From: Thermoleophilaceae bacterium
Lineage (GTDB): Bacteria; Actinomycetota; Thermoleophilia; Solirubrobacterales; Thermoleophilaceae
DNA: 64,000 nucleotides
Assembly (NCBI GenBank): GCA_035630455.1
Contig: DASQKP010000031.1
Span: forward strand, 21,429-85,428
Direction: 5' to 3'
This document shows, piece by piece, positions 1,264 through 20,281 of the stretch. Every line of letters begins with the position of its first letter. The stretch's first letter is position 1. The notes under the pieces are model-generated. The model was not told the origin of the DNA. It ran no database searches and saw only the letters and a list, made by a program, of their open reading frames with translations. A program made the position numbers and the translations under genes.

Positions 1264-1285
1264 CGGTCTCCTCCGCCCAGCACGG

Positions 1286-2467: not shown

Positions 2468-2475
2468 TGGCAAAG

Positions 2476-2495
2476 TATATCGAACAGTTGGTATA
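2476..2495. promoter_or_regulatory. AT-rich imperfect palindrome TATATCGAACAGTTGGTATA, candidate operator inside the 37-bp divergent ACAD/E2 promoter region
   Basis: Read directly. 15/20 identical to a second copy at 17925-17944. Its TATA arms coincide with -10-like hexamers on both strands (TATAAC 2492-2497 on plus; TATACT 2479-2474 on minus). Confidence 0.5.
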
Positions 2496-2504
2496 ACTTT
2501 CCAA

Positions 2505-3764: not shown

Positions 3765-3766
3765 CT

Positions 3767-5687: not shown

Positions 5688-5701
5688 CTGCCACGGGAGC
5701 G

Positions 5702-6484
5702 TCAGCCGATGCCGGTCCAGCGCGGCGGGCGGCGCTCGAGGAAGGCCTGCGGCCCCTCGACGGCGTCCTCGGTCGCGCGCACTCGCACCCAGGAGGAGTC
5801 GTTCTGGCGCCAGCCGTCGGCGGCCGTCCCCTCGACCGTCGCGGCGACGATCGCCATGCTCTCCTCGATCGCCACCGGGGCGTTGGCCGCGATCCGGCCG
5901 GCGATCTCGAGCGCCCGGTCGAGGACCTCGGCGCGCGGCACGCAGTGGTTGACCAGCCCGAGCCGCTCGGCCTCGGCCGCTCCGATCCGGTCGGCGGTCA
6001 AGATCAGCTCGAGGGCCTTCTTCGGACCGATCGCCTGCGGCAGGCGGATCAGCCCGCCGGCCCCGGCGATGATGCCGACCCGGACCTCGGGCAGCGAGAA
6101 CTGGGCCTCCTCGGCGGCGACCACGATGTCGCAGGCGAGCGCCAGCTCGCATCCGCCGGCGAGCGCGAATCCGTTGACGGCCGCGATCAGCGGCTTGCGT
6201 CGCCGCCCGCGAACGATCCCGCAGAAGCCGCCCTCGATTCCGATGATGCCGTCGAGCTCGCCGCGGTCGAGGGCGCCCAGGTCGGCGCCGGCCGAGAAGG
6301 CGCTACCGGCGCCTGTCAGCACCCCGACGCGCACCTCGGGATCGTCCTCGAGCCGGCGGATCGTCGCGGCAACCGCGCTCGACGTCGCCGCGTCGACGGC
6401 GTTGCGCAGCTCCGGGCGGTTGAGCGTGACGATCGCGACCTGTCCGCGCCGCTCCCAGAGGACGTTCGCCTCGGCGTCGCTCAT
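5702..6484 (-). CDS. Enoyl-CoA hydratase/isomerase (crotonase family)
   Basis: ORF trimmed to ATG 6484 (ATGA overlap with the SDR stop). VAIVTLNRPELRNAVD ... LTGAGSAFSAGADL crotonase motifs. Confidence 0.9.
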   Translation of the reverse strand: MSDAEANVLWERRGQVAIVTLNRPELRNAVDAATSSAVAATIRRLEDDPEVRVGVLTGAGSAFSAGADLGALDRGELDGIIGIEGGFCGIVRGRRRKPLIAAVNGFALAGGCELALACDIVVAAEEAQFSLPEVRVGIIAGAGGLIRLPQAIGPKKALELILTADRIGAAEAERLGLVNHCVPRAEVLDRALEIAGRIAANAPVAIEESMAIVAATVEGTAADGWRQNDSSWVRVRATEDAVEGPQAFLERRPPRWTGIG

Positions 6485-7266
6485 GCGAGCAGCCCGCCGT
6501 CGACGTAGAGCGTCACGCCGTTGACGTAGGCGGCGGCATCCGACGCGAGGAAGGCGATGGCCGCGGCGATGTCGCCCGGCTGGCCCCAGCGGCGCAGCGG
6601 GATCTGCTCGATGCTCGACTCGAAGAACTCGCCGTCGTTGCGCAACCCGCTGCTGAGCTGGGTGTCGATCCAGCCCGGGCCGAGGCAGTTGACGCGCACG
6701 CCGCGCGGGCCCCACTCGCGCGCCGCCGCGCGGCTCAGCCCGACGACCGCGGCCTTGGCGGCGGAGTAGTAGGACATCTTCTCGATCCCGCGTCGCGCGG
6801 CGATCGAGACCACGTTGGTCACAGACGACTCGGCCGGGCGCTCGAACAGCAGCGGCGCACACGCGCGCATGACGTTCTGGACGGCGGTCAGGTTGAGCGC
6901 GATCGCCTGGTCGAAGTGCTCCGGGTCGACCTTCTCGATCGCTCGGATCCACTGCGCCCCGCCCGCGTTGTTGACGACGATCTGCAGCCCTCCGAGCTCG
7001 TCGCCGACCCGGCTGACGAGGCTCTCGACCTGCTCTCGATCGGTCACGTCGCAGGTGATCGGCAGCGCGCGCCGGCCAAGCGCCTCCACCTCGGCCGCCA
7101 CGGACTCGATCTCATCCGCGGTCCGCGCGGCCAGCGCGACGTCGGCGCCGAGCTGCGCTAACGCGAGCGCGGTGGCGCGGCCGATCCCACGGCCGGCGCC
7201 CGTCACGAGCGCCGTCCGACCGTCGAGGCCGAAATCGACCCTGTCCGAAATTGCCTCGGCCGTCAT
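6481..7266 (-). CDS. Short-chain dehydrogenase/reductase (3-hydroxyacyl-CoA/3-oxoacyl reductase-like)
   Basis: TGAGRGIG cofactor motif, NNAG, and catalytic YSAAKAAV (YxxxK). Confidence 0.9.
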   Translation of the reverse strand: MTAEAISDRVDFGLDGRTALVTGAGRGIGRATALALAQLGADVALAARTADEIESVAAEVEALGRRALPITCDVTDREQVESLVSRVGDELGGLQIVVNNAGGAQWIRAIEKVDPEHFDQAIALNLTAVQNVMRACAPLLFERPAESSVTNVVSIAARRGIEKMSYYSAAKAAVVGLSRAAAREWGPRGVRVNCLGPGWIDTQLSSGLRNDGEFFESSIEQIPLRRWGQPGDIAAAIAFLASDAAAYVNGVTLYVDGGLLA

Positions 7267-8834
7267 GCCACGACCTCCGCCTGCTCGCGCTCGCGCAGCG
7301 CCCGCTTGAGGACCTTGCCGGAGGGGTTGCGCGGCAGCTCGTCCACGAACCGGAAGCCCTTCGGCACCTTGTAGCCAGAGAGCCGCTCGCGGCAGAACGC
7401 CGTCAGCTCGTCCGGCGACGGCACCGCCTCGCCGCGCGCGACGACGTAGGCGACCGGAGCCTCTCCCCAGCGCTCGTCGGGCCGCCCGACGACGGCGACC
7501 TCGGAGACCGCGGGGTGCTCGTAGAGAACCCGCTCGACCTCCGAGGAGGCGATGTTCTCGCCGCCAGAGAGGATCATGTCCTTGAGCCGGTCGACGATGA
7601 ACAGGTATCCGTCTTCGTCAAGCATGCCGATGTCGCCGGTGTGCAGCCAGCCTCCGCGCAACGCAATTGCCGTCGTCTCCTCGTCGTAGATGTAGCCCTT
7701 GCAGACTTTCGGCCCGCGCATGACGATCTCGCCGGGCGTGTTGGGCGGCACGGGCCGGTCGTCCTCGTCGACTATCCGGACCTCCGCGTTGCAGACTGGC
7801 CGGCCGACCGAGCCCAGCTTGTGGGTCGTCAGGCGCTTGTCGAGGAAGGTGTCGCCGCTGACTGTCTCGGTCATCCCGTAGCCATCGGCGAACCATGCGT
7901 TGGGAAACGCTGCCAGCACGCGCTCGATCAGCGGCAGTGGCATCTTCTCGCCGCCGTCGCTGAGCAGCAGCACCGAACTCAGGTCACGCTCGCCGAGCGA
8001 CGGATCGGCGAGAACCGAGTTGATCATCACCGGCGCCATCCAGACGTGGGTGATCCGCAGCCGCTCGATGGCGTCGAGCGCCTGGGCCGCGTCGAAGCGA
8101 CGCAGGATGTGGCTCTCGCCACCGACCTGGAGCATCGACGTGGTCACCATGTCGAGGCCGCCAACGTGGTAGAGCGGTCCGCAGACCAGGTTGCGGTGCG
8201 CGGCGGTGAACCCGAACTCGACGGTGTGCGCGAGGTTCTTGGCTTCGAGGTTGGCGAACGTGATCATCACGCCCTTGGGTCGCGACGTCGTTCCGGACGT
8301 GTACATCAGCCTCGCCATGTCGTCGCCGGCCACCTCGACCGGCGCCTCGATCGGCTCGGCCGCCGCGCCCAGCGCGTCCAGCTCGGTCCAGCCCTCATGC
8401 GGGAGGAGGCCGATCACGCCGTCGCAGCACAGCTCGCCGGCGGCCTCGACCAACTCGGCGAGCTCCGGCTCGCTGATCAGCAGTCGCGTGCGTGCGTGGT
8501 TGACGATGTAGTTCAGCTCGGGCCCCGCCAGGCGCCAGTTGAGCGGCATCAACACTGCGCCGATGTGGGCGCAGGCGTACATCAGCTCGACGAAGCGGAT
8601 GTCGTTGTGCAGCAGCACGCCGACCACGTCGCCGCGCCGTGCCCCGGCGGTGGCGAGCGCGCCGGCCGTCGTCTTGACCCGCTCGTGGAGCTGCGCCCAT
8701 GTCATCTGCGACCCGTTGCCCGCCAGCGCCAGCGCGCCGCCGCGGCGGTCGGCGTGGTGAGCGAGCACGCGGCTCGGGTTGACCGCGGGCTGCTCCACGA
8801 GTCCGTCCGCGCGACCGCCGTTGGCGGCGCTCAT
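7263..8834 (-). CDS. AMP-forming acyl-CoA synthetase / ligase
   Basis: ORF trimmed to ATG 8834 (ATGA overlap). Motifs YTSGTTSRPKGV, GWLHTGDIG and C-terminal PRNPSGKVLKRAL. Confidence 0.9.
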   Translation of the reverse strand: MSAANGGRADGLVEQPAVNPSRVLAHHADRRGGALALAGNGSQMTWAQLHERVKTTAGALATAGARRGDVVGVLLHNDIRFVELMYACAHIGAVLMPLNWRLAGPELNYIVNHARTRLLISEPELAELVEAAGELCCDGVIGLLPHEGWTELDALGAAAEPIEAPVEVAGDDMARLMYTSGTTSRPKGVMITFANLEAKNLAHTVEFGFTAAHRNLVCGPLYHVGGLDMVTTSMLQVGGESHILRRFDAAQALDAIERLRITHVWMAPVMINSVLADPSLGERDLSSVLLLSDGGEKMPLPLIERVLAAFPNAWFADGYGMTETVSGDTFLDKRLTTHKLGSVGRPVCNAEVRIVDEDDRPVPPNTPGEIVMRGPKVCKGYIYDEETTAIALRGGWLHTGDIGMLDEDGYLFIVDRLKDMILSGGENIASSEVERVLYEHPAVSEVAVVGRPDERWGEAPVAYVVARGEAVPSPDELTAFCRERLSGYKVPKGFRFVDELPRNPSGKVLKRALREREQAEVVA

Positions 8835-10201
8835 CGGCGGGTTCCGATCTCGTGCGCGCCGCTGGCGAGACCGCTGCCCGGGCTGGGTCCGACGATCTCC
8901 AGCCGGGTTCCCCAGGGATCTTCGAAGTAAGCCGCCTGCCAGCCGTGGAGTGGGTGCTGCGGGTCCTCCACGTCGATCGGCTCGACGACGAACCGGACCC
9001 CCGCCGCCGCCAGCCGCTGGTGCACCTCGCGCACGTCGCGCACGCCGAACGAGACGTGGTCGAGGCCCGGGTCCACGATTGTCCGCCGGGTGGTGGCGTC
9101 GTCGTCGCCGCGCGGCTGATGAAGCCACAGCTCGATCCGGCTGCCGCCTGGGCAGAGCAGCTGCACGACCCCCCCGGTCGCGTCCTCCAGTCCGGTCACG
9201 GCTGTGAGGAAGCCACCTTCCAGGGCGTGGCGCCAATCCTCCTCGAGACCGAGGATGTCCCGGTAGAACCGCAGGCCGGCCTCAATGTCGGGCACCTCGA
9301 TCGCGATGTGCGACCCGATGCCCGAGACCCAGTCTCCGTCGAGGCCGGTGGCGAGCGGCCCGCCCGTGGCGGGTTTGCCCTCGACGCGCGCGAGGAACGG
9401 GCGCAGCCGCGCCACGCAGTCCCGCCAGTGCGACAGCACGACACCGTGGAAGGCGCCCGAGACGAACGCGAGCTCGCCCCGAGGAGCCGCCGCGGCGAGC
9501 GCCTCGGCGTTCGACGGATCGACGAACGGGCTGCGCTCCGGCGAGATCACCAGCAGCGGCGCCTGCAGCTTTCCGACCGCGTCGGAGAGGTCGACTCCCA
9601 TCAGGCAGATGGCGATCCCGGTGACCACGCGCGGGTCGATGTTCCGCTGGCGGGCGGCCAGCCACTCCGCGATCGCCGGATCGACGTCGGGCCCAAGGCG
9701 GCCACTGACGATCTCCTCGACCCAGGTCGTCATGCCCTCCTCGGTGGCAACGAGGTCAGGCCAGTGCGCGATGTTGGCGATCCGCGTCCCGTCGAACGCC
9801 GTCGAGCAGGTCGTGACCGACCGCACCCGCGCCGGGTTCGCCGCGGCGAAGGCGAGGCCGATAGTCCCGCCGAACGACTCGCCGACAAAGTGGAAGGCGT
9901 CGACGCCGGCGGCGTCGAGCACGCGCTCGAGATCGTCGACGAAGCGCTCGAACGGGTAGCCGTCGGCCGACCACGCGGCGGCCGACTCGCCGTGGCCGCG
10001 CAGGTCGATGGCGAGCACGGGCCGGTCGGCCGCGACGGCCGCGATCCAGGGGCGCCACACGTCGAGCGACAGCCCGAGGCCGTGCAGGAAGACGATCGGA
10101 GTCGCGTCCGGGGCCCACGGCGGGCGCAGGTCTACGGTCGCGAAGGCCAGCTCGTCGCCGTCGACGTCGATCGTCTGGCGATCCAGCGGTTGCGCCGTCA
10201 T
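8831..10201 (-). CDS. Fusion protein: N-terminal alpha/beta-hydrolase (enol-lactonase/MCP-hydrolase-like) plus C-terminal VOC (glyoxalase/extradiol dioxygenase-fold) domain
   Basis: ATG 10201 (ATGA overlap with the ATPase stop). The N-terminal half has IVFLHGLGLSLDVWRPW, LRGHGES and the nucleophile elbow GESFGG. The C-terminal ~150 aa has HIAIEVPDIEAGLRFYRDILGL, LDHVSFGV and YFEDPWGTRLEI, i.e. the paired beta-alpha-beta-beta-beta modules with His/His/Glu ligand positions. Confidence 0.8.
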   Translation of the reverse strand: MTAQPLDRQTIDVDGDELAFATVDLRPPWAPDATPIVFLHGLGLSLDVWRPWIAAVAADRPVLAIDLRGHGESAAAWSADGYPFERFVDDLERVLDAAGVDAFHFVGESFGGTIGLAFAAANPARVRSVTTCSTAFDGTRIANIAHWPDLVATEEGMTTWVEEIVSGRLGPDVDPAIAEWLAARQRNIDPRVVTGIAICLMGVDLSDAVGKLQAPLLVISPERSPFVDPSNAEALAAAAPRGELAFVSGAFHGVVLSHWRDCVARLRPFLARVEGKPATGGPLATGLDGDWVSGIGSHIAIEVPDIEAGLRFYRDILGLEEDWRHALEGGFLTAVTGLEDATGGVVQLLCPGGSRIELWLHQPRGDDDATTRRTIVDPGLDHVSFGVRDVREVHQRLAAAGVRFVVEPIDVEDPQHPLHGWQAAYFEDPWGTRLEIVGPSPGSGLASGAHEIGTRR

Positions 10202-11778
10202 GTCGCCTCGACCGGCAGTCGGTCGCCTCCGTGCCCGTAGCAAGCCGCCGAGATCGCGTGCTCATTCAGCTGACCGCCGGTCAGCTCGACGTGGAGGCCG
10301 CCCTCCCAGAGGACGAGGACGCGGCTCGCGACCTGAGCGAGCTCGTCGTGCTCGCTCGACACGATCAGGACCGCCATCGACTCCTCGGCGGCCGCCGCCA
10401 GCACCTTGTTGAAGATCTCGCGCCGGGCCTCGATATCGACGCCGTGCGCCGGCTCGTGGAGGATCAGCAGCTTGGGTCCGAGGCCCATCCACTTGCCGAG
10501 CAGGGCCTTCTGCTGGTTGCCGCCGCTGAGCTGGCCGAAGACGGCGTGCGGCGTACGCGGCTTGACGGCGTACCGCTCGGTCAGGTCGCGGACGTCGCGG
10601 ACCTGGCGGTCGCCGTCGAGCCAGCCGCGACGGAAGTAGTCGCCCAGCGTCGCGAGGGTGACGTTCTCCGTCACGGTCGCCTCGGCCACCGCCCCCTCGC
10701 CGATCCGCTGACCGGGAACCAGCGCCACGCCGGCGCGGATCGCGTCGCGCGGCCTGGCCTGTCCGAGCTCGGTCCCGTCGACCTCGATCGAGCCGCTCGC
10801 AGCCTTGGTCGCGCCGAAGAGCAGGCCGGGCAGCTCGTCCTGGCCCATCCCCAGCAGTCCCGTGACACCCACCACCTCGCCGGCGCGGACCTCGAACGAG
10901 AGGTCGCGCAGGATCGCGCCGTTCAAGCCGCGCACGCGCAGCACCTCGGCCGCGGCGCTGGCCTGCAGCCGCCCGCCGGACAGCTCCTCGACGTCGCGGC
11001 CGACGATCAGGCGGATCAGCTCGCGCTCGGTGAGGTCCGCGGTCGGCACCGTTCCGGCGCCGCGCCCGTCGCGCAGCACCGTGACCGCGTCGGTGACGGC
11101 GGTGATCTCGTCGAGCCGATGGCTGACGAACAGGACGGCGCTGCCGTCGCCGGCGACGCGCCGGACGGCGGTGAAGAGGCGCTCGACCTGGTCGTCGGGG
11201 AGCGCCGCGGTCGCCTCGTCGAGCACCAGCAGGCCGGCGCCGTGGGCGCCCTCGATCCCGTCGAGCGCGCGGGCGATGGCGAGGATCGCGCGCTCGCCGC
11301 CCGGCAGCGCGGCGACGGGCTGGTCGATGTCCAGATCGAGCTCGAAGCGCGCGAGCAGGCGGCGGGCGTCGGCGCGCGCCGCGCGCCAGCGCAGCCGCCG
11401 CAGCGGCGGCTCGGTCGCCCACTGGGCGATCCGCAGGTTGTCGACGATCGACAGCGTGTCGACGAGCGCGAGGTCCTGGTGGAGGATCGAGATTCCGAGC
11501 GCGGCCGGGCCACGCGGACCGAGCGGCAGCTCCACGTCCTCGCCCCGCACCGCGAGCCTGCCCCCCGGATCCGGCGCGTGGAAGCCGCCGAGGATCTTGA
11601 TGAACGTCGACTTGCCGCAGCCGTTCTGGCCGATCAGCCCGTGCACGGTGCCCGGGGCGATGTCGAGCGAGAAGTCGCTCAGCGCGGCTGTCGAGCCGAA
11701 CGTCTTGGAGATCCCCCTGACGGAGAGGATCGGCACGTCCGCGCCCGGCGCCGCGGCCGCCTGAGCCGGCGCCGTCAT
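10198..11778 (-). CDS. ABC transporter ATP-binding protein with two fused NBDs (CUT2/RbsA-type)
   Basis: ORF trimmed to ATG 11778 (ATGA overlap). Walker A GQNGCGKST, second-half signature LSGGNQQKALLGKW. 526 aa, consistent with tandem NBDs. Confidence 0.9.
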   Translation of the reverse strand: MTAPAQAAAAPGADVPILSVRGISKTFGSTAALSDFSLDIAPGTVHGLIGQNGCGKSTFIKILGGFHAPDPGGRLAVRGEDVELPLGPRGPAALGISILHQDLALVDTLSIVDNLRIAQWATEPPLRRLRWRAARADARRLLARFELDLDIDQPVAALPGGERAILAIARALDGIEGAHGAGLLVLDEATAALPDDQVERLFTAVRRVAGDGSAVLFVSHRLDEITAVTDAVTVLRDGRGAGTVPTADLTERELIRLIVGRDVEELSGGRLQASAAAEVLRVRGLNGAILRDLSFEVRAGEVVGVTGLLGMGQDELPGLLFGATKAASGSIEVDGTELGQARPRDAIRAGVALVPGQRIGEGAVAEATVTENVTLATLGDYFRRGWLDGDRQVRDVRDLTERYAVKPRTPHAVFGQLSGGNQQKALLGKWMGLGPKLLILHEPAHGVDIEARREIFNKVLAAAAEESMAVLIVSSEHDELAQVASRVLVLWEGGLHVELTGGQLNEHAISAACYGHGGDRLPVEAT

Positions 11779-12815
11779 GCCGCGCTCCCGGCGGCCGCGC
11801 GGCGGCGCCCTACGACCAGCGACAGCGCGACCGCGAGCACGAGCACCGTGCCGTTGAAGATGTCGGTGATGTAGCCGGTGGCCCCGGTCGTGATCTGGAG
11901 GCCGACGATCCCGGTGATCACCAGGTAGATCGCCGCGACCGTCCCCCAGGCGTTGAAGCGGCCGGGCTTGATGGTCGTCGCCCCGAGGAACGCTCCGGCG
12001 AAGGCCGACAGCAAATAGGACTGGGCCGAGAACGGATCGACCGCGTTGAGCAGCCCGCCCTGGAGCAGGCCCGCGAGCGCGGCGATCAGCGAGCTCGCGA
12101 CGAGCGCCACGGTGCGCACGGCCCCGACTGGGATGCCGTTGAGTCGCGCGACCTCGGGGCCGGAGCCGACGAAGTAGAGCCAGCGGCCGACCGGCGTGTG
12201 CTCCAGCACGTACCAGAGCGCGAACGCGAGGCCGATCGCGTAGTAGAAGGTGAGCGGAAGGCCGAGCAGCCGAGTCGAGCTGACGGTGACGACGACCTCC
12301 GGCAGACCGGAGAACGTCTTGGACTCGGTCAGGAGCAGCGTCAGGCCACCGAGCGCCGTCCCGGTGCCGAGCGTCGTGATGAACGAGTTGACGCCGACCT
12401 TGACGATGAAGAAGGCGTTGGTGAGGCCGATCGCAACCGCCAGCGCCAGCGCGAACAGGAGCGCCGGCACGACCGGCCAGCTGTGGTCGACGGTGACGAG
12501 CGCGAACATCGCCGAGACGAACGCGAACACGCCGACGATCGAGAGGTCGAACTCGCCCGCCGCGAGCGGGATCGTCAACCCGAGCGCCAGCATCAGCAGG
12601 ATCGCCTGCGTACCGAGGATGTTCTGCAGGTTGGTGACCGTGAAGAACTGGCTCGGCGCCACCAGCGAGAAGACCACCACCAGGACCACCAGCAGCGCGG
12701 GAACGCCGAACCGGTAGAGCACCTCGCCGGCCCACCAGCCCGCGCTGCGGCGGGCGGTGGCCGGCTGGTCGGCCAGGTCAGCCACGTCGGTCCGCGCGCA
12801 GCTTCGCCGTCGCAT
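11775..12815 (-). CDS. ABC transporter permease (RbsC/CUT2-type)
   Basis: Polytopic hydrophobic protein with the GEFDLSIVGV motif region typical of ribose-type permeases. Alternative GTG start at 12785 would give an 8-nt overlap (GTGGCTGA) with the HyuB stop. Confidence 0.85.
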   Translation of the reverse strand: MRRRSCARTDVADLADQPATARRSAGWWAGEVLYRFGVPALLVVLVVVFSLVAPSQFFTVTNLQNILGTQAILLMLALGLTIPLAAGEFDLSIVGVFAFVSAMFALVTVDHSWPVVPALLFALALAVAIGLTNAFFIVKVGVNSFITTLGTGTALGGLTLLLTESKTFSGLPEVVVTVSSTRLLGLPLTFYYAIGLAFALWYVLEHTPVGRWLYFVGSGPEVARLNGIPVGAVRTVALVASSLIAALAGLLQGGLLNAVDPFSAQSYLLSAFAGAFLGATTIKPGRFNAWGTVAAIYLVITGIVGLQITTGATGYITDIFNGTVLVLAVALSLVVGRRRAAAGSAA

Positions 12816-14589
12816 CGACGTCGACGGTCATCGCCTGGGGATCGATCACGACTCCGTACTGCTCGGACGCGATCTCGAGCGTGATGAACTCGTCGCGGAG
12901 GTCGGTCAGGACCGCCTCGGGGTCACGCTCGAGCGGGTCGCCGAAGCCACCGCCGGACGCCTGCTCCCAGCGGATCGTGCTGCCGGCCTCCATCGGGTGG
13001 TTGGTGACCTTCGAGGGCAGCTCCTCGACGTCGCCGTCGGCGCCGAACTTGGTGACCCGCAGCGGCGTTCCGTCGCTGCCGCCGAAGATCCCCCAGGGCG
13101 CCTCGTAGGTGCCCTCGGCCTCGCTGGTCATGACGGTGTCGACGAGGAACCGGCTCTCGCGGACACTCGCCACGCCGCCGCGCCACTGGCCCGCGGCCGG
13201 CGGATCTGGACGCAGCTCGTAGCGCTCGGTGCGGATCGGGAAGAGCATGTCGAGCTCCTCGATCGGGACGTTGCGCGAGTTGATGACCAGCGTGTCGACG
13301 GCGTCGAGGCCGTCCTTGCCCTGCCGGCCTCCGTAGCTGCCCTCGATGATGTCGTAGTGGCTCCAGTACTCCTGCTTCTCCTCGTCGAAGCCGGCATACA
13401 CCGCCACCGAGAGCGTGCTCGTGCCGGCTGAGATCTTGTCCGGCACGACCTGGGCCAGCGCCTTCATCGCCGTGTCGCCCGCCGTGCAGACCAGGCAGGC
13501 GCGCGGGCCCGCCGAGCGCGGGAACGCGGGGTTGAAGATCGTGCCCACCGGCGCGATCACCGTCACGGGCCGGAAGAGGCCGTGGTTCTGCGGGATCCCC
13601 TGGTCGGCGAAGACCGCCTGGTCGAGGAAGATCGAGCGCACGATCGTGTAGAAGCCCGGAACCGTCGAGCCCCCGAACGGGCAGTTGAAGCCCGTCAGCG
13701 AGTTCTCCTCGCTGCCTGTCAGGTCGCAGGTGACGTTCGAGCCCTCGATCGTGACCTTGGCCTTGACCTTGAGCGGCTTGTCACGGTTGCGCCCGTCGTC
13801 GTCGAGGTAGCCCTCGGCCTCCCAGCTGCCGTCGGGGATCTTCTCGATCTCGGCGCGCATCATCCGCTCGCTGTAGTCGAGCCACTCGCCGATCGCCGGC
13901 ATCACGGTGTCCTTGCCGTACTTCTCCAGTAGCTCGTGCATCCGCCGCTCGCCGAGCCGACAGGTCGCGATCATCGCCTCGGTGTCGCCCTCGACGTAGG
14001 TCGGGGTGCGCGTGTTGTCGAGGAAGAACCGCCAGAGCATCTCGTTGCGGACACCGCGGTCGTAGAGCTTGAGCGAGTCGTAGATCTTGGCCTCGGCGAA
14101 GACGTCGAAGACGTCGATCGCGATGCCCGGGAAGACGCCGCCGACATCGGTCAGGTGGGTCGTCGCCGCCGACCACGCCACCTGCTCGCCCTCCCAGAAG
14201 ATCGGGACGGCGACGAGCAGGTCGGGCGCATGCGAGGCACCCTCGTAGGGGTTGTTGTGGATGATGACGTCGCCCTCGTTGACGTCGCCCTCGAGCCGCC
14301 GCATGAAGCCCTGGATGTAGGCGGGGATCGAGCCGATGTGCATCGGGCTGGTGTCGCTCTCGCAGATCTCCTCGCCGGCGACCGTGAACAGGCCGCCGCC
14401 GATGTCCTCGACCTGCTGCGCGCCGGGCGAGAAGGCCAGCCGCTTGATCGCGTGGCCCATCTCGTGGCCGGCGGCGACGAACGCCCCGCCGATCACCGCG
14501 AGCGTCACGGGATCGACGGTGCCGTGGCCACCGTGGGCCGCCTCGGCGCGCGACTTCGGACGCGCTGGAGCAGTCGAACCGTCAGACAT
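12778..14589 (-). CDS. Hydantoinase B/oxoprolinase-family protein (HyuB-like)
   Basis: 603 aa. N-terminus DPVTLAVIGGAFVAAGHEMGHAIKRLAFSPGAQQVEDIGGGLF matches the hydantoinase_B fold. Overlaps the HyuA stop by 8 nt (ATGTCTGA). Confidence 0.9.
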   Translation of the reverse strand: MSDGSTAPARPKSRAEAAHGGHGTVDPVTLAVIGGAFVAAGHEMGHAIKRLAFSPGAQQVEDIGGGLFTVAGEEICESDTSPMHIGSIPAYIQGFMRRLEGDVNEGDVIIHNNPYEGASHAPDLLVAVPIFWEGEQVAWSAATTHLTDVGGVFPGIAIDVFDVFAEAKIYDSLKLYDRGVRNEMLWRFFLDNTRTPTYVEGDTEAMIATCRLGERRMHELLEKYGKDTVMPAIGEWLDYSERMMRAEIEKIPDGSWEAEGYLDDDGRNRDKPLKVKAKVTIEGSNVTCDLTGSEENSLTGFNCPFGGSTVPGFYTIVRSIFLDQAVFADQGIPQNHGLFRPVTVIAPVGTIFNPAFPRSAGPRACLVCTAGDTAMKALAQVVPDKISAGTSTLSVAVYAGFDEEKQEYWSHYDIIEGSYGGRQGKDGLDAVDTLVINSRNVPIEELDMLFPIRTERYELRPDPPAAGQWRGGVASVRESRFLVDTVMTSEAEGTYEAPWGIFGGSDGTPLRVTKFGADGDVEELPSKVTNHPMEAGSTIRWEQASGGGFGDPLERDPEAVLTDLRDEFITLEIASEQYGVVIDPQAMTVDVDATAKLRADRRG

Positions 14590-16681
14590 TCTGGGCCTCC
14601 GTGCAATCGATGATGACGTTGCCGTACTGATCCACTTCCGCTCTCAGGTCGGGTGGCAACACGGTCGTCGCGGTCTGGTGGTCGATGATCGCCGGGCCTG
14701 TCACGACGTTGCCCGCGAGCAGCTTGGACCCGTCGTAGAAGGCCGTGTCCAGCCGCTCCGTGACTCCGCCGACCTCGAACGCCACCGGGGCGCGCTCGAT
14801 GACCGCATCGTCCGGGGGCGTCTCGCCGCCGGCCTCGATCTGGTTGAGCTCCAGGTCGGGCATGAGCCCGATCCCGTAAACCCGCAGGTGGACGATCTGG
14901 ACCGGCTTCTCGCTGCCGAAGCGCCAGAAGTACTCCCGCTCGTGCGCGTCGTGGAACGACTCCTCGAGTTGCGCGATAGCCGCGTCGTCGAACTCGCCCG
15001 ACGGAGCCGGGACGAGCAGCTCGTAGGCCTGCCCGACGTAGCGGCAGTCGGCGTGGCGCTGCAGGATCATCTCGCTCTCGTCGACGCCGGCCTGCGCCAG
15101 CGACTCGCGCGCCTGCTCCTCCAGCTCGGCGAACACCGCCTGGAGGTCCGCCGGGTTGGCGGAGGGAACGTCGACCATGACGGTGCGCGAGTACTCGTAC
15201 TTGAGGTCCGCGGCGAGCAGGCCGAGCGCCGAGGTCACTCCCGGCTGGCCCGGCACGACCACCGACGGGATCGACAGCTCACGGGCGATCTCCGCGGCCC
15301 ACAGCGGGCCGGCTCCTCCGAAGGCGACGAGGCTGAAGTCGCGCGGGTCGAAGCCCTTGCGGACGCTGTTCAGCTCGATCGCCCGCACCATGTTGTGCGT
15401 GAGGATCTTGAGCGCCGCCATCGCCGCGTCGTCGCGGTCGCGGTCGCCGACACGGCCGACGATGTGGTCGTCGAAGGCCTTCTCCGCGGCCTCGACGTCG
15501 ATCGACATCCGCCCATCGAGCAGGCCCTGGGGACGGAGGCGGCCGAGCACCACCTGTGCGTCGGTCGCGGTCGCCTCGACCCCGCCCTTGCCGTAGCTCG
15601 CCGGGCCCGGGATCGCGCCCGCGCTGCTCGGCCCGACCTGTAGGAGGCCGCCCGAGTCGACACGGGCGATCGAGCCGCCGCCGGCGCCGATCGCGTCCAT
15701 GTCGACCATCGGCAGCATCACGTCGTAGCCGCCGATCGCCGTGTCGTAGAGCCTGCGCATCCGCAGCTCCCCGCCGGGCGCGACGCCGATGTCGGCGGAG
15801 GTGCCGCCGACGTCGAGGGTGATCACGTTCGGATGCCCCGTCTGGCGCCCGATCCAGACCCCGCCGATGATTCCGGCGACCGGGCCCGACATAAGCAGCG
15901 AGACCGGCTTGGCGCTGGCGTCGGGGACGCTCACGACGCCGCCGCTGGAGGTCATCAGGCCGATGTCCAGCTCCGGCGCGTCCGTGGCCAGCGCCTCGCG
16001 CAGGTTGTCGAGGTAGCGGCCGGTCTTGGGGCCGATGTACGCGTTGAGGCAGGCCGTCGAGAACCGCTCGTACTCGCGGTGCAGCGGCACCACCTCGTGG
16101 CTGACCGACAGGTACGCCTCCGGGAACTCCTCACGGACGATCTCGGCGGCGCGCTTCTCGTGGTCGGAGTTGAGGAAGGCGAAGAGGAAGCCGACGGTGA
16201 TCGCGTCGACCCCGTCGGCCTTCAGCTCGCGGACAGTCTGGCGGACCTTCTCCTCGTCGAGCGGCACGAGGACGTCGCCGCTCGGCGCGTCGATCTTCTC
16301 CGGGACCACGCGCCGGTTGGCACGCGACGCCAGCGAGGGCTCCCGCCAGGGCAGGTCCTGCTGGATCGAGAACGTGAACGGGCGGCGGTGACGGCCGATG
16401 TAGAGCACGTCCCGGTAGCCCTCGGTGGTGATGAAGCCCACCTCGCTGCCGTTCTTCTCGAGCACGATGTTCGTACCGACGGTCGTCCCGTGAAGCAGCT
16501 GGTCGATGTCGGAGACCTCGACGTCGTGCATCTCACAGATCTCGCGCAGGCCCGCCAGCAGCGCCTCCGCCGGGTTGGACGGCGACGACGGCAGCTTGTG
16601 GACCTCGATCCGCTTCTGCTCCGCGTTCCAGTAGACGAGGTCGGTGAACGTTCCGCCGACGTCTGCGCCAACGCGGTTCAC
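14582..16681 (-). CDS. Hydantoinase A/oxoprolinase-family protein (HyuA-like, ATP-binding ASKHA fold)
   Basis: ORF trimmed to GTG 16681 (GTGA overlap with the binding-protein stop). VNRVGADVGGTFTDLVYW N-terminal motif plus an internal DVGGTSADIG phosphate-binding motif. Confidence 0.9.
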   Translation of the reverse strand: MNRVGADVGGTFTDLVYWNAEQKRIEVHKLPSSPSNPAEALLAGLREICEMHDVEVSDIDQLLHGTTVGTNIVLEKNGSEVGFITTEGYRDVLYIGRHRRPFTFSIQQDLPWREPSLASRANRRVVPEKIDAPSGDVLVPLDEEKVRQTVRELKADGVDAITVGFLFAFLNSDHEKRAAEIVREEFPEAYLSVSHEVVPLHREYERFSTACLNAYIGPKTGRYLDNLREALATDAPELDIGLMTSSGGVVSVPDASAKPVSLLMSGPVAGIIGGVWIGRQTGHPNVITLDVGGTSADIGVAPGGELRMRRLYDTAIGGYDVMLPMVDMDAIGAGGGSIARVDSGGLLQVGPSSAGAIPGPASYGKGGVEATATDAQVVLGRLRPQGLLDGRMSIDVEAAEKAFDDHIVGRVGDRDRDDAAMAALKILTHNMVRAIELNSVRKGFDPRDFSLVAFGGAGPLWAAEIARELSIPSVVVPGQPGVTSALGLLAADLKYEYSRTVMVDVPSANPADLQAVFAELEEQARESLAQAGVDESEMILQRHADCRYVGQAYELLVPAPSGEFDDAAIAQLEESFHDAHEREYFWRFGSEKPVQIVHLRVYGIGLMPDLELNQIEAGGETPPDDAVIERAPVAFEVGGVTERLDTAFYDGSKLLAGNVVTGPAIIDHQTATTVLPPDLRAEVDQYGNVIIDCTEAQNV

Positions 16682-17895
16682 TGGGTCACCTCCGGCATGC
16701 TCCACTGACGTCGGTAGGCGTCCTCGTAGGCGGTCGACTTGCCGCCCTTGGTGATCACGTCCCAGAGTTCGTCCTGGTCCTCGAGCGCGCTCGCGGGGAT
16801 GTCCTTGAGGTTCTCGTAGGTGAACAGCTTCTGCGGGATGTTCTGCTCGGACGGCTCCGCGCCGGCTGCCAGGCGCAGGCCCTGGTCGTAGAAGGCCCAG
16901 CCGAGGCCCTTGTTGTTCTGGCCGACGCTGCCCAGCTGAACGTCGCCCTTCTTGATCCAGCGCAGGTTCGGGTCCAGCGCGCCGTTCTCGGAGACGATGT
17001 GGATGTCGTCCTGCTTGCCGAGTTGGCGGATGGCGGGCGCGATGAAGTTGCCGATCACGTCGATCGACGGCGCGAACCAGTTCAGCTCGGGGTTGCGGCT
17101 GATCAGCGTCTTGGTGAGGCTCGGGATCTCGGTGTTCAGCGTCGCGACGCGGGCGTCGGACTCGGCCACCTCGGCGTCCGGGCAGAACTGCCCGAGCGCG
17201 TCCTTGAAGCCGGCGGCGACGTTCTTGGTCGAGCGGTACTCCGAGACCGTGATGACGTGGGCGTTGACGTCGCACTTGTCACGGACGGCGGCGTACGCGG
17301 CCATCACCTCGCCGGCCTCGGTGTAGCTGTAGGTCGCGTTGGCGTTGGTGCCCGGATCGAGCGGGTCGTCAGGGTCGCCGTTGTTGGCGCTGACGACCGG
17401 GATGCCGGCCTCCTGGGCCTTCTCCAGCGGTCCGGCGAACGCCTTCGGGTCGAGCGAGAACAGCACGATCGCGCCGGCCTTCTGCTGGATCGCCTGCTCG
17501 ATGCCGCGCTGCATCTCGGAGATGTCGTTCTGCCCGTCGAAGACCACGCCCTCGACGCCGGCGGTCTTGCCGGCGTCCTCAAACGCCTCGACGACGACCT
17601 GTACGAAGGGGATGCCGAGCGTCGGCGAGATCAAGTGGATGGGGTTGGTCTTGCCGCGCAACTCGGCGACGTCGATCGGCTCGCCGCCCGGGTCGAACAC
17701 GGCCGGCCCGGAGAAGTCGTCGACCAGGCGCTGAGCCTCCTCGAGGCCGGTGCCGGCGCTTGCGCCGTCACCTGATCCCTGGCTGTCGCCGGCTGGACTG
17801 TCGTCCCCGCCGCAGGCCGCGATGAACAGCGCCAGCACTGCTACGACAAGCGCGACGAAGTTCCGAATGGTGTGGGGACGTGCGAGCAAGCTCAC
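16678..17895 (-). CDS. ABC transporter substrate-binding lipoprotein (PBP type 1, sugar-binding-like)
   Basis: GTG 17895 is preceded by AAGGAGAG. Signal peptide plus lipobox (LALFIAACGG). The body resembles ribose/monosaccharide-type periplasmic binding proteins. Confidence 0.85.
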   Translation of the reverse strand: MSLLARPHTIRNFVALVVAVLALFIAACGGDDSPAGDSQGSGDGASAGTGLEEAQRLVDDFSGPAVFDPGGEPIDVAELRGKTNPIHLISPTLGIPFVQVVVEAFEDAGKTAGVEGVVFDGQNDISEMQRGIEQAIQQKAGAIVLFSLDPKAFAGPLEKAQEAGIPVVSANNGDPDDPLDPGTNANATYSYTEAGEVMAAYAAVRDKCDVNAHVITVSEYRSTKNVAAGFKDALGQFCPDAEVAESDARVATLNTEIPSLTKTLISRNPELNWFAPSIDVIGNFIAPAIRQLGKQDDIHIVSENGALDPNLRWIKKGDVQLGSVGQNNKGLGWAFYDQGLRLAAGAEPSEQNIPQKLFTYENLKDIPASALEDQDELWDVITKGGKSTAYEDAYRRQWSMPEVTQ

Positions 17896-17924
17896 TCTGT
17901 GACTCTCCTTGTGAGGACCGGCGA

Positions 17925-17944
17925 TATACCGAACGAGCGGTATA
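17925..17944. promoter_or_regulatory. AT-rich palindrome TATACCGAACGAGCGGTATA, candidate operator of the nine-gene operon
   Basis: Read directly. 7-bp perfect arms TATACCG/CGGTATA with a 6-bp spacer. It overlaps the predicted -10 and sits 30-49 nt upstream of the binding-protein start. 15/20 identical to 2476-2495. Confidence 0.5.
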
Positions 17945-17969
17945 ATACAGAGGGGGTTATCCCTGTCAA
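17942..17969 (-). promoter_or_regulatory. Sigma70/SigA-like promoter: TTGACA (17969-17964), 16 nt spacer, TATTAT (17947-17942)
   Basis: The minus strand reads cTTGACAgggataaccccctctgTATTATaccg. The -35 overlaps the stop codon of the upstream MFS gene. Confidence 0.5.
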
Positions 17970-19444
17970 GCAGGCCAACTGGCTGGCGCTGTCGACTCTT
18001 CGATTCCCGCTTCCAAAGCGGGAATCCGGGGAATCGCAAGGGCGAAACCGGCCGCGACGAGCCCGGCGGCGGCCATCACCAGGAATGCCGCGACGTAGGC
18101 GCTCTCGGCCGGCGTCGCGGTCCCCTCGACCGTCGCGGCGGCCAGCAGCGTCGCGACGAGCGCGGCCGAGAAAGCGCCCCCGACGGCGCGCGCGACCGTG
18201 TTCAGGCCGGTGGCGATGCCTATGTCGCGGGCGTCCACCCCGGCAACGATCAGATTCGCCATCGACGTCCAGGCGAACGAGATCCCGCCGCCGATCAGCA
18301 CTCCCGCGAAGACCACGTCGCCGACGCCGTCGTGGGCCGCGGCGAGCGAGCCGAACGCCACGGCGACCAGCAGCGCCCCCAAGGCCAGCACCGCGCGCCC
18401 GCCGTAGCGATTCGCGAGCGCTCCGGCGACCGGTCCACAGACGAGCATCGCCACGGCACTCGGCAGCATCACCAACCCGGCTCCGACCATCGACAGGCCC
18501 AGCCCGTGACCTCCGTCGACGGCGACGTGGGAGTACTGCGGAATCAGGATGAACGACCCGAACATCGCCACGCCGACGAAGAAGCTCGCGCCGTTGGTCG
18601 CGAGCATCGACCGCTCCCCCAGCATCCGCATGTCGACCAACGGCTCCCGCACGCGCCCTTCGAGGACGGCGAAGGCCAGCAGCGTCCCCACGCCCGCAAG
18701 CATCAGCCCGACCGTCGGCGCGGCGCCCCAGCCCCACGCGCTCGCCTTGGAGATCGCCAGCAGCACGGCGACCAGCCCGAGCGACAGCACGGCGGCTCCA
18801 CCCCAGTCGAGCGTGGCCCGCCCGCGCGGCGGGTCGTTCGGCACGACCCACCAGACCGCGGCGGCCGCCGGCAGGGCGATCAGCCCGACGAGAAAGAGCC
18901 AGGCCAGCTCGCCATGGTCGAGGATCGCTCCCGCTAGCGGAAGGCCCATGCCGCCGCCGATACCGAAGGTCGCCGACAGCAGCCCGATCGCCACCGCCTT
19001 GCGCTCAGCGGGGAAGGTGTCGTTGACGATCCCGAAGGCAAGCGCGAAGACCCCTCCGGCGACTCCCTGGACCACTCTCCCGCCGATCAGCACCTCGATC
19101 GAGCCGGCAAGCGCGCAGATCACCGAGCCGAGCCCGAAGACGACGAGCACGGCCGTCAGCACCCGCCGCCTGCCGTGGAGATCGCCGAGCTTGCCGACCA
19201 GCGGCGCGCAGACGGCGGCGGACAGCAGATAGCCGGACAGCGCCCATGCCGCCGACGGGCCCGTAGTGCCGAACGCCTCCGCGATCGCCGGCAGGGCCGG
19301 CGCGACCATCGTGTGCAACAGCGAGAAGGAGAACGCCCCGATCAGCAGGGCGACCAAGACGGCAGCTGGCGAGCGGCCGTCCGCGGCGCTGGGTGATTGG
19401 GGGGCGGTGTAGGCGCGGCTAGCCATGCCGTCAGGCGCCGCCAC
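17966..19444 (-). CDS. MFS transporter (DHA2/EmrB-like drug:H+ antiporter family)
   Basis: 492 aa, about 14 hydrophobic segments. MFS motif LVGKLGDLHGRRRVL after TM2. Confidence 0.85.
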   Translation of the reverse strand: MAAPDGMASRAYTAPQSPSAADGRSPAAVLVALLIGAFSFSLLHTMVAPALPAIAEAFGTTGPSAAWALSGYLLSAAVCAPLVGKLGDLHGRRRVLTAVLVVFGLGSVICALAGSIEVLIGGRVVQGVAGGVFALAFGIVNDTFPAERKAVAIGLLSATFGIGGGMGLPLAGAILDHGELAWLFLVGLIALPAAAAVWWVVPNDPPRGRATLDWGGAAVLSLGLVAVLLAISKASAWGWGAAPTVGLMLAGVGTLLAFAVLEGRVREPLVDMRMLGERSMLATNGASFFVGVAMFGSFILIPQYSHVAVDGGHGLGLSMVGAGLVMLPSAVAMLVCGPVAGALANRYGGRAVLALGALLVAVAFGSLAAAHDGVGDVVFAGVLIGGGISFAWTSMANLIVAGVDARDIGIATGLNTVARAVGGAFSAALVATLLAAATVEGTATPAESAYVAAFLVMAAAGLVAAGFALAIPRIPALEAGIEESTAPASWPA

Positions 19445-19508
19445 TCCGCGCGGTGAATGTAACAGACCACCAGCGGCCCGACGGGGGCTTTGGTCGGGCG
19501 ACGGGCGG

Positions 19509-19973
19509 CTAGACGAGCGCGCGGCCGACGGACTCGGCGACGCAGCAGGGCTTCTCGGAGCCCTCGACCTCGAGCGTGAAGCGGGTCACGACCTGGAACC
19601 AGCCGCCGCCGACATCGTCGACCGAGACGACCTCGGCGCTGGCGCGGACACGCGACCCGACCGGGACGGGCGCCGGGAAGCGGACCTTGTTCCAGCCGTA
19701 GTTGACGCCGAGCTTGAAACCGGTCGACTCGATCAGCGCGAGCCGGAAGCCGTCGATCATCGACAGCGTCAGGTTGCCGTGCGAGATCGTGGTGCCGAAC
19801 GGGCTCTCGCGGGCGGCGCGCTCGACGTCGACGTGGATCCACTGGTCGTCGCCCGACAGCTCGGCGAACGAGTCGATCATCGGCTGCGTCACCTCGCGCC
19901 ACTCGCTGGGACCGACCGGCTTGCCGATCAGCCCGCGCAGCCCCTCGATTCCGTCGACGGTCGCCAGCGCCAT
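19509..19973 (-). CDS. MaoC-like (R)-specific enoyl-CoA hydratase, hot-dog fold
   Basis: 154 aa with SGDDQWIHVDVERAARESPFGTTISHGNLTLS, the MaoC dehydratase motif region. Confidence 0.85.
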   Translation of the reverse strand: MALATVDGIEGLRGLIGKPVGPSEWREVTQPMIDSFAELSGDDQWIHVDVERAARESPFGTTISHGNLTLSMIDGFRLALIESTGFKLGVNYGWNKVRFPAPVPVGSRVRASAEVVSVDDVGGGWFQVVTRFTLEVEGSEKPCCVAESVGRALV

Positions 19974-19974
19974 A

Positions 19975-20244: not shown

Positions 20245-20281
20245 GTCACTGAGCGTAGTGGCAACGCCTATCTTGGAGGGG

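Follow-up and report, generated by a model that had tools for sequence, protein, structure and literature searches.

To our knowledge, only a handful of substrates are known for the hydantoinase/oxoprolinase family. Its members are marked by the ATP motifs DxGGTxTD, DxGGT, and GxxPGP in the A subunit and by an Asp-His-Asp-His tetrad in the B subunit (PMC8453981), and its ATP-dependent hydrolases of lactams and imides attract interest as a mild means of hydrolyzing stable lactams (PMC11033972). Described systems include the N-methylhydantoinase of EC 3.5.2.14 (PDB 7hk5/9h03), the caprolactamase CapAB of Pseudomonas jessenii (6yra) and the valerolactamase OplBA, and the acetone and acetophenone carboxylases (5svb, 5m45, 5l9w). 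Genes for the two subunits (HyuA and HyuB, together HyuAB) have been reported beside ATP-binding cassette (ABC) importers in Ti-plasmid opine-lactam regions (PMC6733357), and the indoleacetate (iaa) operon of Aromatoleum/Azoarcus combines the hydantoinase-like hydrolase IaaCE with the coenzyme A (CoA) ligase IaaB and the binding protein IaaM (PMC8453981, PMC8360864). The iaa operon is the sole published case we found of a HyuAB-type ring opener in a CoA-thioester pathway with binding-protein-dependent uptake. Here we describe a nine-gene operon built around HyuAB in a 64,000-nucleotide stretch of DNA (the window, at its full length) from a Thermoleophilaceae bacterium (GenBank assembly GCA_035630455.1, contig DASQKP010000031.1, positions 21,429 to 85,428).

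We read this locus, as about an even call, as a repressor-controlled catabolic operon for the uptake and breakdown of a small polar compound that contains a cyclic amide; the likeliest candidates are cyclic imides, hydantoins, and lactams with five- or six-membered rings. Since HyuAB within a CoA pathway and HyuAB beside importers have both been published, the general idea is not new; what is new is the nine-gene composition, the position of HyuAB between the binding-protein and permease genes, a near-orphan binding protein, and an essentially unique hydrolase::VOC fusion. Compared by gene content, the iaa operon differs in that it needs the B12-dependent mutase IaaGH, the CoA transferase IaaL, and the decarboxylating acyl-CoA (benzylmalonyl-CoA) dehydrogenase IaaF (PMC8360864), none of which is encoded here; neither B12-mutase nor CoA-transferase domains were detected in the operon or its scanned flanks. 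A literature search for the gene combination found no matching system, and literature on imide activity of N-methylhydantoinase and on PDB 9H03 yielded nothing usable. An earlier reading made from the letters alone (the sequence-only reading) had matched the gene order to no characterized pathway, and this stands: neither a characterized homologue nor a matching pathway was found, and the NCBIfam cut-offs for caprolactamase, acetophenone carboxylase, and CUT2 sugar importers were all missed.

With a window G+C content of about 70%, long spurious open reading frames are common, and frames were therefore picked by third-position G+C (GC3). Nine consecutive minus-strand genes (17895..5702) showed a GC3 of 0.91 to 0.95 in the called frame, and the domain assignments of all nine exceeded Pfam gathering scores by a wide margin, bearing out both the nine genes and the nine annotations of the sequence-only reading. 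In operon order they are as follows:

17895..16678, minus strand: substrate-binding lipoprotein, 405 aa (Peripla_BP_4 PF13407, 112.7 bits)
16681..14582, minus strand: HyuA, ATP-binding subunit, 699 aa (PF05378, PF01968, and PF19278)
14589..12778, minus strand: HyuB, metal-dependent hydrolytic subunit, 603 aa (PF02538, 469.6 bits)
12785 (or 12815)..11775, minus strand: RbsC-type permease (BPD_transp_2 PF02653, 91.6 bits)
11778..10198, minus strand: ABC ATPase with fused tandem nucleotide-binding domains, RbsA/AraG/XylG type, 526 aa (two ABC_tran stretches)
10201..8831, minus strand: alpha/beta-hydrolase::VOC fusion (Abhydrolase_1, 104 bits; Glyoxalase, 50.6 bits)
8834..7263, minus strand: AMP-forming acyl-CoA synthetase (ligase), 523 aa (AMP-binding, 288.6 bits, and AMP-binding_C)
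7266..6481, minus strand: classical short-chain dehydrogenase/reductase (SDR), 261 aa (adh_short_C2, 231 bits)
6484..5702, minus strand: crotonase-fold enoyl-CoA hydratase, 260 aa (ECH_1, 209.7 bits)

Stop and start codons overlap at all eight junctions, in operon order by 4 nt (GTGA), 8 nt (ATGTCTGA), 8 nt (GTGGCTGA), and then five times by 4 nt (ATGA). The claim of overlap at every junction with no internal gaps was thus confirmed, with an ambiguity at the third junction, where a permease start at GTG 12785 gives an 8-nt overlap and one at ATG 12815 a 38-nt overlap; as called in relatives, this overlap is 8 nt in locus L014 and 17 nt in L009. A GGAGG-like Shine-Dalgarno sequence lies within the preceding gene at five of the eight internal starts. 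The binding-protein gene begins at GTG 17895 behind the ribosome-binding site AAGGAGAG, and position 17969, from which the sequence-only reading had counted the element, marks where the -35 hexamer of the promoter begins and is not a codon. No terminator-like site was found by sequence scan inside the operon, and an Rfam scan of 1..21000 returned no known RNA family; the leader, only about 45 nt long, is too short for a riboswitch. This layout suggests translational coupling and one transcript for the nine genes. Overlaps of 4 nt are common in high-GC actinobacteria and are unremarkable on their own; the arrangement goes beyond chance because independent relatives repeat it, both in gene order and in overlaps.

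Two proteins of the operon have exact counterparts: HyuA is identical to a protein of a 75.8-kb JGI metagenome contig, and the fusion protein to one from an NCBI metagenome-assembled genome (MAG) labelled Thermoleophilaceae. The whole cluster, at 88 to 98% protein identity, is present in L003, a MAG labelled uncultured Solirubrobacterales, together with the gene for a major facilitator superfamily (MFS) transporter upstream and the converging E1beta gene downstream (both described below). L014 carries the MFS, binding-protein, HyuA, HyuB, and permease genes in the same order at 77 to 98% identity, while L004, L015/L016, and L013 have the binding protein (65 to 80%) followed at a 4-nt overlap by HyuA (79 to 83%) where the contig permits. 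From the other end, L009 contains HyuB, permease, ATPase, fusion, ligase, SDR, and crotonase at 61 to 87% identity. Every instance of the operon belongs to Thermoleophilia or to an unassigned metagenome contig, and none to a cultured organism. The operon, one of uncultured Thermoleophilia (Actinomycetota), is real, conserved, and lineage-restricted. The gene-neighborhood search that the sequence-only reading had proposed thus finds the order recurring in relatives at 61 to 98% protein identity, none of them characterized.

The ring-opening pair was assigned from domains, motifs, and comparison with solved enzymes. HyuA and HyuB score 164.5 (Hydant_A_N), 272.7 (Hydantoinase_A), 60.6 (Hydant_A_C), and 469.6 bits (Hydantoinase_B) in Pfam; the ATP motifs of HyuA read DVGGTFTD (residue 7), DVGGT (residue 290), and GAIPGP (residue 355), and the HyuB metal tetrad D62/H120/D123/H145 aligns with D41/H99/D102/H124 of CapB. 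Scores against solved relatives were as follows:

N-methylhydantoinase 7hk5/9h03 (fused chain, about 50% identity): HyuA 728.6 bits, HyuB 576.8 bits
Caprolactamase (6yra): HyuA 340 bits, HyuB 226 bits
Acetophenone carboxylase: HyuA 278 bits, HyuB 106 bits
Acetone carboxylase: HyuA 231 bits, HyuB 79 bits

The alignment to 7hk5_A spans HyuA residues 1-694, and HyuB residues 26-598 match 7hk5_A residues 701-1277. N-methylhydantoinase has the same domain set and no gamma subunit; it differs in being a fused 1288-aa chain, whereas the window encodes two polypeptides in a different gene context without creatinine-pathway genes. Its closeness (729/577 bits, about 50% identity) suffices to suggest a shared type of reaction but not a shared substrate. 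CapAB and OplBA are likewise two-subunit ATP-dependent lactam hydrolases and share the ATP motifs and the D-H-D-H tetrad (PMC8453981), but no aminotransferase gene follows HyuAB in the window, and the NCBIfam caprolactamase equivalogs were missed (CapA 524.5 bits, NF050156, and CapB 279.3 bits, NF050157, against cut-offs of 1000).

These comparisons also bear on a ketone carboxylase of the acetone/acetophenone type, in which HyuAB would make a beta-keto acid and the ligase a beta-ketoacyl-CoA. The carboxylases belong to the same superfamily and share the metal site, the tetrad of HyuB being common to carboxylases (PMC8453981); a beta-keto acid is a natural CoA ligase substrate, and a Zn-dependent alcohol dehydrogenase that might yield a ketone is encoded nearby. 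Against this, the carboxylase scores lie 3 to 7 times below the N-methylhydantoinase scores, and the Apc cut-offs were missed (ApcA/ApcC/ApcD at 100 to 302 bits versus 1250 to 1500; ApcC 302/1500, ApcD 100/1500). HyuB, at 603 aa, is shorter than the 776-aa carboxylase alpha subunit and lacks its extension. The operon holds no gamma-subunit (or epsilon) gene and, with overlaps at every junction, could not accommodate the small gamma (Zn) subunit gene of the carboxylase type, and the SDR and then the crotonase would have to run reductively. We consider this explanation very unlikely. The sequence-only reading had allowed ring opening or carboxylation: the former is supported, and the latter is disfavored by the scores (729/577 versus 231/79 bits) and the missing gamma subunit.

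It is likewise highly improbable that HyuAB is simply an orthologue of the known enzyme serving N-methylhydantoin/creatinine or 5-oxoproline salvage. The best solved relative does carry the label N-methylhydantoinase at about 50% identity, but the operon and some 6 kb to each side of it yielded no creatinine deaminase, N-carbamoylsarcosine amidase, or sarcosine oxidase, and such pathways have no need of a CoA ligase, SDR, or crotonase. The solved enzyme also has Gln (7hk5_A residue ~820) at the fourth metal ligand, the position of CapB His124, where HyuB, like CapB, keeps a His (His145, window ~14155-14157).

At the three CapB pocket positions that could be mapped from the alignment, Leu38, Ile60, and Ile62 are replaced in HyuB by Gln59, Ser81, and Met83, and the pocket therefore appears more polar than that of CapB. 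A small polar imide, hydantoin, or lactam is proposed because the nearest relative is N-methylhydantoinase and because of these polar residues. The N-methylhydantoinase of Pseudomonas putida 77 also hydrolyzes succinimide and glutarimide. From its sequence we conclude that HyuAB is probably a hydrolase-type, ATP-dependent opener of cyclic amides, outside every characterized substrate class. Each sequence criterion applied places it in the hydantoinase/oxoprolinase family, and the cluster would operate much as the known ATP-dependent hydrolase systems for lactams and hydantoins do.

The sixth gene encodes a serine alpha/beta-hydrolase (aa 1 to ~280, with GESFGG, Ser109, and His252) fused to a single VOC/glyoxalase-fold domain (aa ~295 to 440). 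The AlphaFold2 (AF2) model is confident for the hydrolase domain, with a predicted local distance difference test score (pLDDT) near 90. In fold, this domain comes closest to the enol-lactonase PcaD (2xua) and 3om8, with template-modeling (TM) scores of 0.87 to 0.89, followed by the KAI2/D14 butenolide hydrolases and the N-acyl homoserine lactone (AHL) lactonase Est816. PcaD shares the fold (TM 0.89) and the Ser-His pair but differs by the VOC fusion and by sequence, identity to PcaD-type folds being 22 to 24% and the PcaD equivalog TIGR02427 reaching 93.8 bits against a cut-off of 255.85. The VOC domain gave generic matches only, to no subfamily, in the PDB and NCBIfam, its best scores being to catechol 2,3-dioxygenase (34.8 bits, cut-off 320), an epimerase (28.3, cut-off 115), and glyoxalase I (23, cut-off 120). 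An exhaustive HMMER search of 1.84 billion cluster representatives returned one representative matching the full-length fusion, all other matches covering one domain; full-length fusions fall into three clusters at 90% identity, and the plasmid collection held no match to the fusion protein at E <= 1e-20. The hydrolase::VOC architecture is essentially unique. The cluster names of stand-alone hydrolase and VOC relatives were uninformative, and Rosetta-stone support for the fusion was sought and dismissed: a stand-alone VOC protein near a hydrolase homologue in L010/L011 is not detectably similar to the VOC domain.

The last three genes supply parts of a beta-oxidation-like module. The ligase is nearest in structure to feruloyl/fatty-acyl-CoA synthetase (8wev/8weu, 339 bits), FadD5, and MenE. 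The SDR carries the motifs TGAGRGIG, NNAG, and YSAAK and passed only the generic NCBIfam subfamily PRK07231. The crotonase, nearest to mycobacterial EchA1 annotated as 'carnitinyl-CoA dehydratase' (about 200 bits), has both catalytic glutamates (in GGCELALACD and LPEVRVG); a ring-cleaving (or decarboxylating) crotonase of the BadI type was ruled out, since both hydratase glutamates are present. The operon thus holds an acyl-CoA synthetase, a hydratase with both Glu, and a putative 3-hydroxyacyl-CoA dehydrogenase with its catalytic Tyr/Lys, while no thiolase was found in the operon or in the scanned genes at 211..5687 and 17966..31004, and an acyl-CoA dehydrogenase lies outside the operon (2467..1286). 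The term 'beta-oxidation-like module' of the sequence-only reading accordingly holds for ligase, hydratase, and dehydrogenase but not for a complete set.

The main support for treating the nine genes as one pathway comes from other contexts of HyuAB. In L001, HyuA (65%) and HyuB (79%) come after a homologue of the hydrolase domain (47%, without VOC), which HyuA overlaps by 4 nt, and in L010 to L012 a hydrolase homologue (45 to 48%) lies divergently beside a ligase homologue (53 to 61%) with HyuAB absent; together, these loci make the hydrolase the common partner of the ring-opening pair and of the CoA ligase. HyuA homologues of 52 to 64% identity (HyuA/HyuB 50 to 70%) recur in parallel settings with other enzyme families. 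L002/L005, L091, and L092 have the order GntR, family III CoA transferase, Zn-dependent alcohol dehydrogenase, isochorismatase-family hydrolase, HyuA, and HyuB, after which come a 3-hydroxy-3-methylglutaryl (HMG)-CoA-lyase-like protein, an Asp/Glu-racemase-family protein, and an MFS transporter. In L093, a CoA transferase and an HpcH/CitE-type lyase diverge from HyuAB, with an isochorismatase-family gene nearby. L094, from a plasmid of Rhodococcus pyridinivorans SB3094 (NC_023144.1, 165077-178061), has GntR followed by HyuA-HyuB-amidase and, divergently, a MaoC dehydratase, a CoA transferase, a PrpD-family protein, an acyl-CoA dehydrogenase, and a CoA ester lyase. Coming from a cultured strain, L094 may be a tractable model for this HyuAB clade. 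Genes of the polysaccharide-deacetylase and Amidohydro_1 families are often near the L002/L005 and L091 to L093 clusters, and the CoA module of L094, which is interrupted by an IS256 element, resembles one for itaconate or another C5 dicarboxylate.

Across these loci the roles are taken by different families: an isochorismatase-family hydrolase or amidase stands for the alpha/beta-hydrolase, a CoA transferase for the ligase, MaoC and a lyase for crotonase and SDR, and an MFS transporter for the ABC importer. The same chemical roles nonetheless appear to be filled in every case, namely, ring opening, hydrolysis of an amide, CoA activation, hydration, and C-C cleavage or oxidation. Because this sequence of roles recurs independently, the nine genes are best read as one pathway with a carboxylic, probably dicarboxylic, product. 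The predicted course set out in the sequence-only reading, from uptake through ring opening, hydrolysis, and CoA activation to beta-carbon chemistry, thereby gains independent support from six other contexts of HyuAB homologues (50 to 65% identity) with nonhomologous enzymes. The L002, L091 to L093, and L094 clusters, in which an amide hydrolase adjoins HyuAB and enzymes of CoA activation and hydration or cleavage are close by, are themselves uncharacterized.

In the pathway we propose, the lipoprotein binding protein, the RbsC-like permease (as a dimer), and the fused double ATPase would import the compound. HyuA and ATP would activate the amide as a phosphorylated iminol, and the HyuB metal site (D62/H120/D123/H145) would hydrolyze the ring, a mechanism borrowed from caprolactamase and N-methylhydantoinase; the motifs themselves are seen here. 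The PcaD-like serine hydrolase would then cut a second bond and release a carboxylic acid. This bond may sit in the half-amide or carbamoyl group that remains once the ring is open, or it may be that of an ester or a lactone; the fused VOC domain may isomerize or epimerize. The AMP-forming ligase would convert the acid to its CoA thioester, the crotonase would hydrate an enoyl-CoA, and the SDR would oxidize the 3-hydroxyacyl-CoA to a 3-oxoacyl-CoA. Cleavage is placed outside the operon because the operon has neither a thiolase nor a lyase; among the products of flanking genes, the acyl-CoA dehydrogenase, the Zn-dependent alcohol dehydrogenase, and the E1/E2 complex may contribute. Expression would run from one promoter whose -10 region lies under a palindromic candidate operator, with the stop/start overlaps coupling the nine products.

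Several points weigh against this proposal. The fold neighbors of the hydrolase are lactonases and esterases, not amidases, and the VOC domain, modeled with a pLDDT below 60, could not be placed in any family. The importer is of a type that normally carries sugars or polyols, a poor fit to a plain imide or hydantoin. The steps could also run in another order, for example with the ligase preceding HyuAB, as is now proposed for indoleacetate. The three modules (importer and HyuAB, hydrolase and ligase, SDR and crotonase) also occur separately elsewhere, and the accessory enzymes of the parallel contexts are 30 to 38% identical or of different families, so that the likeness is one of logic and not of orthology.

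A rival reading makes the operon a mosaic of co-transcribed genes serving two or three unrelated tasks, such as uptake and ring opening of a nitrogen source and a separate acid-CoA pathway, with a gene order that says nothing about a pathway. HyuAB pairs do occur without the other genes (L001, L002), the ligase and hydrolase pair occurs without HyuAB (L010 to L012), and the more distant hydrolase relatives have unrelated neighbors. A metagenome scan with the hydrolase-domain profile gave 74 loci at 27 to 46% identity without shared context; in L029, HyuAB lies near the hydrolase with unrelated genes between, and in L023, HyuAB converges on the hydrolase at 35 to 37% identity, both of which are weak evidence. 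A mosaic is nonetheless hard to square with L009, where the order from HyuB to crotonase and four 4-nt overlaps persist though the fusion protein is only 61% identical, or with an operon in which all junctions overlap behind a single promoter. The L001 hydrolase homologue is directly joined to HyuAB, and the other HyuAB contexts likewise pair ring opening with CoA chemistry. On balance we judge the mosaic distinctly unlikely, and the single catabolic pathway for a cyclic amide remains our preferred reading.

The same parallel contexts admit a broader proposal, to which we give a limited, clearly minority weight: soil actinobacteria may share a widespread and so far undescribed ATP-dependent pathway that handles cyclic imides or similar small N-heterocycles, the operon being one form of it and the CoA-transferase/lyase clusters beside 50 to 65% identical HyuAB pairs, in other Thermoleophilia and on Rhodococcus plasmids, being further forms. 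In such a pathway the N-methylhydantoinase-like clade would open the ring, an amide hydrolase would remove nitrogen, and the resulting (branched or unsaturated) dicarboxylic acid would be degraded as a CoA ester; the version in the window would be served by a sugar-type importer, with a binding protein recruited to a non-sugar ligand, and by the unique hydrolase::VOC fusion. Substituted succinimides or maleimides, as formed in tetrapyrrole decay, would be candidate substrates, though naming them is pure speculation.

The importer has the complete CUT2 parts list, namely, a Peripla_BP_4 binding protein, a BPD_transp_2 permease, and the fused tandem ATPase, with the HyuA and HyuB genes inserted between the binding-protein and permease genes. 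The same parts make up RbsBCA, XylFGH, and AraFGH; the importer described here differs from them in the HyuAB insertion, in the near-orphan status of its binding protein, and in missing their equivalogs. The sugar-specific NCBIfam equivalogs were all missed, by the binding protein (29 versus 420 bits) and by the permease (109 versus 450 bits), which resembles GguB/RbsC/AraH below their cut-offs; the ATPase scored 358 bits against the AraG cut-off of 689 and 354 against the XylG cut-off of 699. The ribose-type architecture seen in the sequence-only reading was therefore retained, while membership in a monosaccharide-specific family was not. The binding protein has the lipobox ...FIAAC-GG and a best PDB match of only E = 4e-9, and its AF2 model, from a six-sequence alignment, has a mean pLDDT of 33. 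It has five homologue clusters in a collection of 5.8 billion proteins, and the four of these that were traced to contigs (all but P0280) show this operon arrangement.

Such an importer would suit a sugar- or polyol-conjugated lactam or lactone, of an opine-, Amadori-, or glyconolactam-like kind, in which the importer recognizes the carbohydrate, HyuAB opens a pyroglutamyl-type lactam, and the hydrolase acts on the lactone form. Mannityl and deoxyfructosyl opines exist as lactone and lactam forms. Besides the CUT2-type importer with its Peripla_BP_4 binding protein, the lactonase folds nearest to the hydrolase and the Ti-plasmid opine-lactam regions, where HyuAB genes adjoin ABC importers (PMC6733357), speak for this possibility. 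The operon, however, encodes no sugar-processing enzyme (kinase, isomerase, aldolase, or opine-type oxidoreductase), the ligase, crotonase, and SDR would have no obvious role, and the binding protein is very distant from sugar-specific families (best NCBIfam score 29 bits). Known opine importers, moreover, belong to other binding-protein classes. We regard a conjugate of this kind as quite doubtful and continue to favor the unconjugated cyclic amide. As a separate observation on CUT2 importers, L010 (GCA_964533285.1, CAZHLT010000025.1) contains two copies of a set comprising a thiamine pyrophosphate-dependent enzyme, two Oxidored_FMN+Pyr_redox_2 reductases, and an SDR, each beside a CUT2 importer, and its ligase/hydrolase pair (61% and 48% identical to those of the window) lies between the two sets.

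The control region and the flanking genes contain the following features:

17969..17942, minus strand: sigma-70-type promoter TTGACA-16-TATTAT, 11 of 12 consensus matches
17925..17944, no strand assigned: candidate operator, perfect palindrome TATACCG-N6-CGGTATA with 7-nt arms 100% complementary
17966..19444, minus strand: upstream DHA2-family MFS transporter (MFS_1, 162 bits; EmrB subfamily, 180 bits against a cut-off of 230)
2505..5687, plus strand: E2, E1alpha, and E1beta of a pyruvate/acetoin-type 2-oxoacid dehydrogenase complex (Pfam/NCBIfam)
2467..1286, minus strand: acyl-CoA dehydrogenase, divergent from E2 (Pfam/NCBIfam)
1308..211, minus strand: Zn-dependent alcohol dehydrogenase, divergent from E2 (Pfam/NCBIfam)
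2476..2495: second operator-like palindrome TATATCG-N6-TGGTATA, 2 mismatches; 0.01 matches expected per window

In the 16 kb scanned for consensus matches (4500..20500; 0.5 sites expected), this promoter was the sole promoter-like site, in keeping with the single good promoter that had been noted in front of the operon. The candidate operator overlaps the -10 hexamer and the likely transcription start. When the upstream regions of the window and four relatives were aligned, the invariant blocks were GCTTGACA and ATTATACCGCTCG-TCGGTATA, while the 16 to 17 nt between them varied freely; the second block is the -10 hexamer merged with the palindrome, and the promoter hexamers are invariant in five relatives while the spacer sequence changes. 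The exact palindrome is invariant in L003, L013, L014, L015, and L016 and present in 0 of the 88 other loci among the 93 fetched, and L013, L015, and L016, the more distant relatives, have another, degenerate copy a few bases downstream. A site for a dimeric repressor lying across a transcription start would be expected to look like this, which points to a candidate repressor operator. No regulator gene was found beside the operon among the flanking genes scanned.

The stop codon of the upstream MFS gene overlaps the -35 hexamer of the operon promoter, and the gene precedes the binding-protein gene in L003, L013, L014, and L016 (58 to 87% identity), i.e., in every relative long enough to show it; read-through from this gene, or a functional link with it, is possible. 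On the other side, the 2-oxoacid dehydrogenase genes stand in the unusual order E2-E1alpha-E1beta and converge on the crotonase gene with a 14-nt gap to its stop codon, and no terminator-like hairpin was found between the E1beta and crotonase genes. Both L003 (98%) and L009, at its end (67% over 52 aa), keep the adjacency to E1beta.

The second palindrome sits in the 37-bp gap between the ATG of the acyl-CoA dehydrogenase gene (2467, minus strand) and that of the E2 gene (2505, plus strand). Neither gene seems to have a leader, their -10-like boxes lying 6 to 8 nt before the ATGs, and 8 of the 14 half-site bases are the TATA of these two divergent boxes; because of this sharing, the match is weaker than shuffle statistics imply. 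The palindrome suggests co-regulation of the flanking genes with the nine-gene operon, and the functional unit may reach beyond 5702 to the flanking dehydrogenase genes, which are possibly associated with it.

A conserved operon that ties one HyuAB clade to an importer, a second hydrolase, and CoA chemistry offers a testable route to a new substrate class, in a family where about 8000 candidates fall below E = 1e-50 to this HyuA alone. If the substrate is an ordinary hydantoin or lactam, the locus is merely one more catabolic cluster; its significance would rise if the recurrent link between HyuAB, amide hydrolase, and CoA turned out to mark a route, not described before, by which cyclic imides or similar heterocycles are processed. 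Should the binding protein take a non-sugar heterocycle, the ligand range of ribose-type importers would widen. Thermoleophilia are abundant in soil and almost entirely uncultured, and a defined catabolic trait helps explain how they make their living.

Further upstream of the operon, 19509-20427 (minus strand) encodes a MaoC-like dehydratase and a DUF2277 protein, of which L014 keeps DUF2277, with MaoC absent. Beyond these, 21758-24517 (minus strand) encodes a VanY/SLT-domain protein with a Tad-like N terminus and a TadE-like protein, seemingly unrelated to the operon.

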